From the NCBI RefSeq assembly GCF_003334305.1, contig NZ_QOWS01000027.1: a stretch of 62,264 bases of DNA. The stretch is one strand, 5' to 3'. Numbering within the stretch: the first letter of the stretch is position 1; the number at the start of each line of letters is the position of its first letter. The notes beneath the pieces are model-generated. The model was not told the origin of the DNA, searched no databases, and was given only the letters and a program-made list of their open reading frames with translations. Positions 31,210 through 32,711 of the stretch are shown piece after piece. The translations under genes and the position numbers were made by a program. Origin of the DNA: Escherichia coli. GTDB lineage: Bacteria; Pseudomonadota; Gammaproteobacteria; Enterobacterales; Enterobacteriaceae.

Positions 31210-32711
31210 ATGAATATCAGAAAACTGTTTTGTCCGGGCCCCCCCCGGGTTTTATTGTTTTTATTCTTTTTTGTTGTTTCTGTCATAACCACAATTGCAT
31301 ACGGATACACTGAGAAGAATGCCACCGGGAATGAGTTGCTGCTGTTCCTTCTTCTGCTTCTTGCACACAGAAATACCCTCACATCCATTACAGCTCTCTG
31401 TTATTTCTGTTCTGTTGTGCACTGTATGCGCCTGCCGGTATGACGTACGGTAAAATCAACAACAGTCTTATTGTCGCGTTGTTGCAGACCACAACTGATG
31501 AGGCAGCGGAGTTTACCGGGATGATTCCTGTTTATCATTTTCTGGTCAGTGCCGCGATTCTGGTATTCATGGTGATTTTCTGGCGAACACACCACCGCGG
31601 TCACCGTAACTGGCTGGCACTGCTGCTATTCGTATTATGCTCAGTAAACAGTTGGCCGTTGCAGATAGTTAAAGGAACTGTTGTGGGGACAACTGACACA
31701 TTGCGTGAAATGCAGCATTATAAACAACTGAGTCAGCACGGGGCTGACAACTGGAAAATCCTGCCGGGAACACCGTTATATGACACGATTGTTATTGTCA
31801 CTGGTGAGAGTGTGAGCAGGGATTATATGTCGGTATATGGTTATCCCGTGCCAACCACACCGTGGCTGAATACGGCTCCCGGTTTATTTATTGACGGCTA
31901 TACATCGACAGCAGCCAGCACCGTGCCCTCCCTGAGCCGGACACTGATTTATGACTATGAGCAGAACCCTGATTCCGGCAACAACGTGGTGGCGCTGGCA
32001 GCAAAAGCAGGATACAGCACATGATGGATATCCAATCAGGGAAAACTGGGAGAGCATGACACACGCATCTCTGTTATTGCTTCTGATGCAGAGCATACCG
32101 TTTTCCTCAAGAAAGGCAGCTTTGCTTCCCGTAAAACAGATGACATGCAGTTGTTACAGGAAACAGAACGTGCGCTGGCGGATACATCCTCTCCGAAGGT
32201 CATTTTCCTGCACATGATGGGTTCTCATCCGAATCCGTGTGACCGGCTTAACTCCTGGCCGAATAATTACCAAGAGCAGTTCCCACGGAAGATTGCCTGT
32301 TACCTCGCCAGCATCAGTAAACTGGATAACTTTCTCGGGCAGCTTGATGGTATCCTTCGCTGGCATTCCCGTCATTTTGCCATGCTTTACTTTTCTGACC
32401 ATGGACTGTCAGTCAGCGACAGTACTAATCCTGTTCATCATGATGGCCATGTGCAGGCTGGCTACAGTGTTCCCCTGATTATTACCGCCAGTGACATCAC
32501 ATCTCACCAGTCCGTCAGCAGAAAAATCAGTGCCCGTCATTTCGCAGGCATTTTTCAGTGGCTGACTGGTATTCGTACTGAAAATATACCGCCATTCAAC
32601 CCGCTGATAAATGAAGATAATGAACCTGTTATGGTTTTTAACGGAGAGAGAATAGTTCCTGCGGACGGCCTTAAGTCACAGCCTGTGATTCTTCCGGGCA
32701 AGGGAAAATAA
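31210..32711 (+). pseudogene. Phosphoethanolamine-transferase/sulfatase-family gene, disrupted (frameshift plus in-frame TGA; 5' end abutted by IS481)
   Basis: Three ORF pieces: 31210-31443 (TM-like), 31440-32024 (contains IVTGESVSRDY), 32145-32711 (contains MMGSHPNP); the last two are in the same frame, separated by a TGA at 32022-32024. Confidence 0.5.

Follow-up and report, generated by a model that had tools for sequence, protein, structure and literature searches.

The stretch of DNA analysed here (the window; 62,264 nucleotides of Escherichia coli contig NZ_QOWS01000027.1) carries what, judging from sequence comparison, is most probably (roughly 90%) a decayed, nonfunctional allele of an accessory phosphoethanolamine (PEtN) transferase gene, in which a C run near the start codon is a neutral hot spot of length change and not a contingency switch, and an in-frame TGA is a plain nonsense codon. 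In this lineage, an ISEc18-associated deletion took away the partner gene and, to within one base of the ATG, the promoter; slippage duplicated a CT dinucleotide, which shifted the frame at codon 63; and a 3-nt in-frame rewrite turned a C-rich stretch with interruptions into a pure C run. One sub-lineage then acquired TGG to TGA at the Trp272 position. With the gene dead, run length would no longer have been under selection and would have drifted between C7 and C14 by replication slippage. The deletion, the CT duplication, the TGG-to-TGA change, and the rewrite of the C run are each apparent on comparison with other alleles, and the run either arose in the dead gene or was tolerated by it.

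The biology of the locus is ordinary, and the locus itself matters little. The one modest gain is the documentation of a hypervariable run (C7 to C14) across 54 near-identical alleles, which could serve as a fine-scale typing marker and is a trap for homopolymer errors in long-read assemblies. The locus also provides a concrete series of island-gene decay: an IS-associated deletion, dinucleotide slippage, and a nonsense mutation, followed in sister strains by a 61-bp deletion or an IS3 insertion.

Table 1. Features of the pseudogene and its surroundings; positions are those of the window unless a locus is named
Feature	Position	Strand	Basis or remark
Druantia type I anti-phage defence operon druA-druE	18513-29852	-	annotated intact in the identical A7 sequence
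Left deletion junction	30188..30189	.	comparison with FREC5 (L002)
ISEc18 (IS481 family), 1020 bp	30189..31208	+	IS481 transposase model, inverted repeats, PGAP name
ISEc18 transposase CDS	30229-31200	+	co-oriented with the pseudogene; ends 8 bp short of the IS end
PEtN transferase pseudogene, YjgX/YhbX-type	31210..32711	+	alignment to intact 500-aa CDSs, Pfam, PGAP annotation of identical locus
C8 homopolymer, codons 10-13	31239..31246	+	G3C8G3 = 31236-31249; in frame with ATG
(CT)3, 2-bp CT duplication (actual frameshift)	31394..31399	+	alignment with six intact alleles
TGA nonsense codon from TGG (Trp, STWWISNQ motif)	32022..32024	+	alignment; only one sub-lineage (haplotype A)
P4-type tyrosine integrase of island	32976..34238	-	annotation
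tRNA-Phe (pheV), island attachment site	34436..34511	-	yqgA-speC flank; sole Rfam match nearby
tia/hek-type outer-membrane-protein gene in intact loci	L002 2110-2850; L003 2080-2820; L004 2114-2842; L005 2081-2827; L011 1594-2334; L012 1690-2334		

One gene in three pieces

The original prediction described a PEtN transferase-like pseudogene whose sulfatase-family motifs are split across three open reading frame (ORF) pieces, and alignment bears this out. IVTGESVSRDY lies in the ORF at 31440-32024, and MMGSHPNP lies in the ORF at 32145-32711. Because single 500-aa proteins from other E. coli strains (92 to 96% nucleotide identity) align collinearly with the three pieces over their full extent, the pieces represent one ancestral gene, and its frame could be reconstructed by the alignment that had been suggested. 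The pseudogene measures 1502 bp, against 1503 bp in intact alleles. Lesions were mapped by alignment with six intact alleles; example strains with such an allele are FREC5 (protein WP_021520529.1), DLL7555, 21EVA, AH20E044, STIN_95, and MIN14. The source is E. coli, and strain A7 was 100% identical over the stretches tested (31150-32800, 34400-44400, and 7500-17600). The identical locus in A7, MS6192, and many other strains bears the RefSeq/PGAP label phosphoethanolamine transferase, "frameshifted; internal stop," adjoining ISEc18; it is thus already catalogued as a routinely annotated pseudogene.

The family assignment rests on several profile matches. In the closest intact allele, the Pfam Sulfatase domain (PF00884; i-E 1.9e-36) covers residues 193 to 446, and the EptA_B_N membrane domain (PF08019; i-E 4.1e-5) gives a weak match at the expected position, residues 44 to 144. 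All NCBIfam matches are PEtN transferases, and two ORF pieces of the window each match such models. The scores stay far below the curated cutoffs for CptA (108.9 versus 404), EptA (57.9 versus 561 and 35.8 versus 660), EptB (49.2 versus 493), and the MCR models (37 or less versus about 1250). By these scores the gene is a distant PEtN transferase paralogue and not EptA, EptB, EptC, or MCR. The best solved relative is the catalytic domain of E. coli EptC (7e-19), followed by MCR-1. When the window protein is repaired for frame, its GES, S-T, MGSHP, and SDHG motifs align to those of EptC and MCR-1; we take the roles of these motifs (the Glu of GE(S/T), the Thr nucleophile, the His of MG(S/N)H, and the Asp-His of SDHG) from MCR-1 and EptA. 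The likeness to EptC/CptA (PDB 5ZZU/6A82), EptA, EptB, and MCR-1 thus extends to the same sulfatase-fold domain, aligned metal-binding and nucleophile motifs, and an N-terminal multi-helix membrane domain. The pseudogene has the periplasmic sulfatase-fold domain, the N-terminal membrane domain, and the motifs of the superfamily; an uninterrupted functional ORF is the one feature that it lacks.

With the CT insertion and the TGA repaired, the window protein is 91 to 94% identical to intact proteins. The allele has 25 private codon changes, of which 13 are nonsynonymous and 12 are synonymous. This 13:12 ratio is compatible with only moderate relaxation of selection, most of the divergence then predating the death of the gene.

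The upstream deletion and the CT frameshift

An IS481 element was predicted to abut the 5' end of the gene directly. The element is ISEc18: its transposase matches the IS481 model NF033577 at 261.2 bits (cutoff, 224), and its ends form perfect 25-bp terminal inverted repeats (30189-30213 and 31184-31208). A single base separates its right end from the ATG of the pseudogene at 31210. We searched its flanks (...CATTAGA and GATGAAT...) for a target-site duplication and found none. The closest intact locus is that of FREC5 (L002), whose integrase and Druantia neighbour are those of the window. Positions 28600 to 30188 of the window correspond to positions 34 to 1622 of L002 (99.2% identity), and the window from 31209 onward corresponds to L002 from 3001 onward. 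The intervening 1378 bp of L002 (1623-3000) are absent from the window, and the 1020-bp ISEc18 stands in their place. The missing 1378 bp and the lack of a target-site duplication indicate an IS-associated deletion and not a simple insertion. The lost stretch holds an integrase remnant, a 741-bp tia/hek-type outer membrane protein (OMP) gene, and the 151-bp intergenic region upstream of the transferase. Compared with FREC5, the pseudogene has lost its partner OMP gene and its native promoter region, up to one base before the ATG. Transcription from the co-oriented transposase gene of ISEc18 could possibly read through into the pseudogene.

A -1 frame change had been placed at 31440-31443. Its net effect holds, as the actual lesion adds two bases (+2 being equivalent to -1), but its position does not. 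GCTCTG or GCGCTG of intact alleles has become GCTCTCTG through expansion of (CT)2 to (CT)3, and this insertion leads to a frame-0 stop at 31441-31443. The bases at 31440-31443 are only an ATGA overlap, where this stop meets the next ATG at 31440. All 54 complete genomes that have the run-bearing allele described below carry the CT frameshift, as do five of five metagenome contigs.

The same gene has been broken independently elsewhere. PK-F-10122 carries an IS3-family insertion (L009 3291-4468), and an ISEc8/IS66 insertion lies in the gene of strains 3059 and JCH8249 (L025/L026 3036-3130). YSP8-1 has a 61-bp deletion in the gene and IS2 beside ISEc18. From these disruptions, the gene appears to be frequently dispensable.

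Length variation of the C run

A G3C8G3 tract in the 5' piece had been reported and was read directly in the window. The C8 run lies 27 nt past the ATG between two GGG triplets (31236-31238 and 31247-31249). It replaces CAACACCCCCC or CAATACACCCC of intact alleles with a net loss of 3 nt, in frame: GGC-AAC-ACC-CCC-CGG-A (or CAATACACCCC) has become GGCCCCCCCCGGG in the window, a pure C run, and intact alleles have only interrupted C4 to C6 stretches in its place. The window contains three G/C runs of at least 8, compared with about one expected under an independent-base model. A single run of this kind is unremarkable; the length polymorphism between strains exceeds chance.

Run length was surveyed in 5,426 complete E. 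coli genomes with a query of 96 bp that has the run at its centre (31190-31285); 54 of the genomes carry the IS-abutted run-bearing allele. The lengths implied by the aligned span were C7 in 4 genomes (95 bp), C8 in 29 (96 bp), C9 in 16 (97 bp), C10 in 3 (98 bp), C12 in 1 (100 bp), and C14 in 1 (102 bp). Direct reading of 14 loci confirmed C7, C8, C9, C10, C12, and C14, and every length difference among these loci sits in the C run. The strains called C7 are 165, CREC-591, 357900, and Ceylon31; C10 belongs to YD786, SCU-111, and YSP8-1, C12 to PK-F-10122, and C14 to S115. A control query of the same size, placed 65 bp beyond the first (31350-31445) and covering the (CT)3, matched exactly 54 genomes, all at 100% identity. 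Every copy of this allele therefore has the CT frameshift, and the C run specifically is what varies. The five metagenome contigs carry C8 (three contigs) or C9 (two contigs); all are IS-abutted with the CT insertion, and one joins C8 with TGG.

Ten single-nucleotide polymorphism (SNP) columns over 1.5 kb divide the alleles into two haplotypes. Haplotype A combines the TGA with run lengths of C8, C7, and, in one case, C10; in haplotype B, TGG is accompanied by C9, C10, C12, or C14. C10 occurs on three different SNP backgrounds, and three strains with one common private SNP carry C10, C12, and C14. Among 15 sequences (the 14 loci read plus the window), there were at least seven independent length changes, so that one run has changed about as often as the other 1,500 bp have acquired substitutions. 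A run of this length was predicted to be able to slip, and the spread from C7 to C14 among strains agrees with this.

The apparent heterogeneity could also be an artefact of G/C homopolymer miscalling in long-read assemblies, with the run itself stable. CREC-591 (NZ_CP024821.1) lacks one base at each of two unrelated G/C homopolymers (C7 in the pseudogene and G7 in the fimbrial subunit gene), which suggests systematic under-calling and is a warning on ±1 tract differences in public assemblies. The C7 calls come from four assemblies only, and some ±1 calls, especially C7, may be assembly errors. As an account of the whole pattern, miscalling is nevertheless improbable: C8 versus C9 cosegregates with four linked SNPs in the two haplotypes and recurs in metagenome contigs, C10, C12, and C14 are more distant from the modal lengths than ordinary ±1 errors would place them, and the two other G8 runs of the island are invariant in length in nearly all sampled assemblies.

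These two G8 runs lie at 12696-12703 and 15037-15044, in the usher (10726-13236) and subunit (14720-15238) genes of a chaperone-usher fimbrial operon, both annotated as intact. Among 60 E. coli genomes sampled, both runs are conserved in length almost throughout; the subunit run is G7 in CREC-591, where the gene is thereby truncated, and the usher run shows a +2 span in one case. There was no sign of phase variation at either run in the 60 genomes.

A consensus scan also pointed to a terminator-like hairpin at 31232-31260 (CCGGG-C5-CCCGG plus a T-rich tail). We treated it as a coincidence because the T-rich tail encodes the Leu/Phe-rich first membrane helix and the pairing is not kept in two intact loci (L002 and L004).

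No run length opens the reading frame

Homopolymers of this kind were noted to mediate phase variation of surface modification genes in other bacteria, with the caveat that this gene carries other lesions. The caveat turned out to be decisive. A working contingency switch of a surface-modifying PEtN transferase would have a precedent in Neisseria eptA (lptA), where the length of an intragenic homopolymer switches the enzyme by slippage (PMC10525099). Neisseria eptA and pptA belong to the same enzyme superfamily, and both have a homopolymer inside the ORF that changes length in the same way. The E. coli run likewise lies inside the ORF, it differs in length between strains, and C8, C11, and C14 preserve the N-terminal frame. 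The Neisseria genes, however, are otherwise intact and are turned ON or OFF by the length of the run, whereas the E. coli allele is never open. No repeat length gives an intact, expressible gene: translations of C7, C8, C9, C10, C12, and C14 alleles in three frames all contain stops. C9 or C12 combined with the CT insertion does make the overall length divisible by three again, but stops occur in the 50 codons between the two sites. In 54 of 54 genomes and 5 of 5 metagenome contigs, the run is found together with the +2 CT frameshift and the promoter deletion associated with the IS. We found no run-bearing but otherwise intact allele in the 5,426 complete genomes or the metagenome contigs scanned, and no run-bearing allele without the IS in the 5,426 genomes. 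Functional E. coli alleles lack the run, unlike those of Neisseria, so that the likeness is limited to the chemistry of slippage. We consider a working switch very unlikely.

G/C runs of 8 or more drift in length by replication slippage when unconstrained by selection. Since every run-bearing allele has the CT frameshift and the promoter deletion, slippage has no on/off output here and is neutral. The C run is one more example of the polymorphic mononucleotide repeats found in nonselected E. coli DNA, from which it shows no substantive difference.

Possible residual function of the broken allele

Alleles of the TGG haplotype have no coding lesion left except the CT frameshift (e.g., strain S115 with C14 and metagenome contig L030 with C8). 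If (CT)3 were to lose one unit, C8, C11, or C14 together with read-through from ISEc18 would yield a full-length PEtN transferase. If true, this two-repeat switch would be a low-frequency, IS-driven contingency system in E. coli; we regard it as a long shot.

A functional, N-terminally truncated enzyme might instead be made from the internal ATG at 31440, with transcription by read-through from ISEc18. This ATG opens the correct frame, the ORF from it runs 423 codons to the native stop in TGG strains, enough for a 47-kDa product, and the transposase gene of the IS is co-oriented. The product would be without the first two predicted membrane helices, however, and in the window the TGA ends this ORF after 194 aa, ahead of both catalytic motifs, MGSHP and SDHG. 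The further decay in sister strains (the 61-bp deletion of YSP8-1 and the IS3 insertion of PK-F-10122) also argues against selection on the locus, and such an enzyme is hard to credit.

The single in-frame TGA was confirmed, in the frame of the ORF that starts at 31440, where the intact 500-aa proteins have Trp272. Its codon context had been put forward for a check of recoding, which lent recoding no support. The codon is TGG in intact alleles and in haplotype B, which is 99.9% identical, and the TGA is therefore a recent G-to-A nonsense mutation that followed the frameshift. Recoding as selenocysteine or Trp read-through, by which the downstream 228 codons would still be made, has in its favour that the TGA is the only one in frame and that the frame beyond is open to the native stop, but its likelihood is close to nil: the transition is only a few SNPs old, homologues keep neither UGA nor Cys there, an Rfam scan of 29800-34700 (E ≤ 1) found only the tRNA and no SECIS element 3' of the UGA or other RNA family, and the upstream frameshift already blocks translation from the native start to the TGA.

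The intact gene and its relatives

By megablast, related sequence is present in 2,921 of 5,426 complete E. coli genomes, and many of these have an intact CDS of 1500 to 1503 bp (about 500 aa; 92 to 96% nucleotide identity). Each of the six intact loci read has a tia/hek-type OMP gene on the same strand, 150 to 180 bp upstream of the transferase, from which we infer that the ancestral unit was an OMP-transferase gene pair. The intact gene thus encodes a putative 500-aa inner membrane PEtN transferase, usually paired with this upstream OMP gene. The function of the pair is the more interesting question, which a dead copy is unable to address.

The gene is accessory in E. coli and adjoins an integrase in tRNA-Phe, selC, and leuX islands. 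In a published survey (PMC6174562), every pheU, pheV, and selC insertion site analysed was reported to have a putative PEtN transferase of the YjgX/YhbX type. The K-12 remnant is yjgX, a pseudogene of the leuX/KpLE2 island that belongs to the same family and occupies the same niche beside a P4-type integrase at a tRNA gene. K-12 derivatives carry it as a 5'-truncated copy that matches window positions 31525 to 32654 at 91.4%. ISEc18 with its 1.38-kb deletion, the CT duplication, the TGA, and the pure C run set the window lineage apart from yjgX. We found no functional study of the gene in the literature on yjgX, yhbX, and ISEc18, where yjgX figures mainly as a neutral integration site or a false-positive control.

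Island setting

From the tRNA inward, the island consists of the P4-type integrase, the pseudogene, ISEc18, and the Druantia type I genes druA to druE. The tRNA-Phe gene is the pheV copy, as yqgA, speC, nupG, mltC, and mutY come after it. The first annotated match, MS6192, is a pheU island, and we rejected a pheU placement of the window because only 17481-34559 is common to both. This 17-kb module comprises IS3, Druantia druE to druA, ISEc18, the dead PEtN transferase gene, the P4-type integrase, and tRNA-Phe. It lies at pheV in the window and A7 and at pheU (dicD-dsbD-cutA flank) in MS6192, with 99.9% identity, which indicates a past move or recombination of this module, or of the end of the island, between the pheU and pheV copies of tRNA-Phe, which are identical. 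In MS6192, druC is frameshifted.

The left part of the window (1240-7463) carries pgtP and pgtC-pgtB-pgtA (phosphoglycerate transport and regulation), followed by an IS21 remnant and then the fimbrial operon; the distal boundary of the island is near or beyond the window start. At the other end of the pseudogene, its last ~110 bp and ~90 bp downstream (32603-32800) match a 198-bp stretch of avian pathogenic E. coli (APEC) IMT5155 at 99%. This stretch is annotated under a peptide ABC transporter substrate-binding gene and may be a small displaced island fragment.
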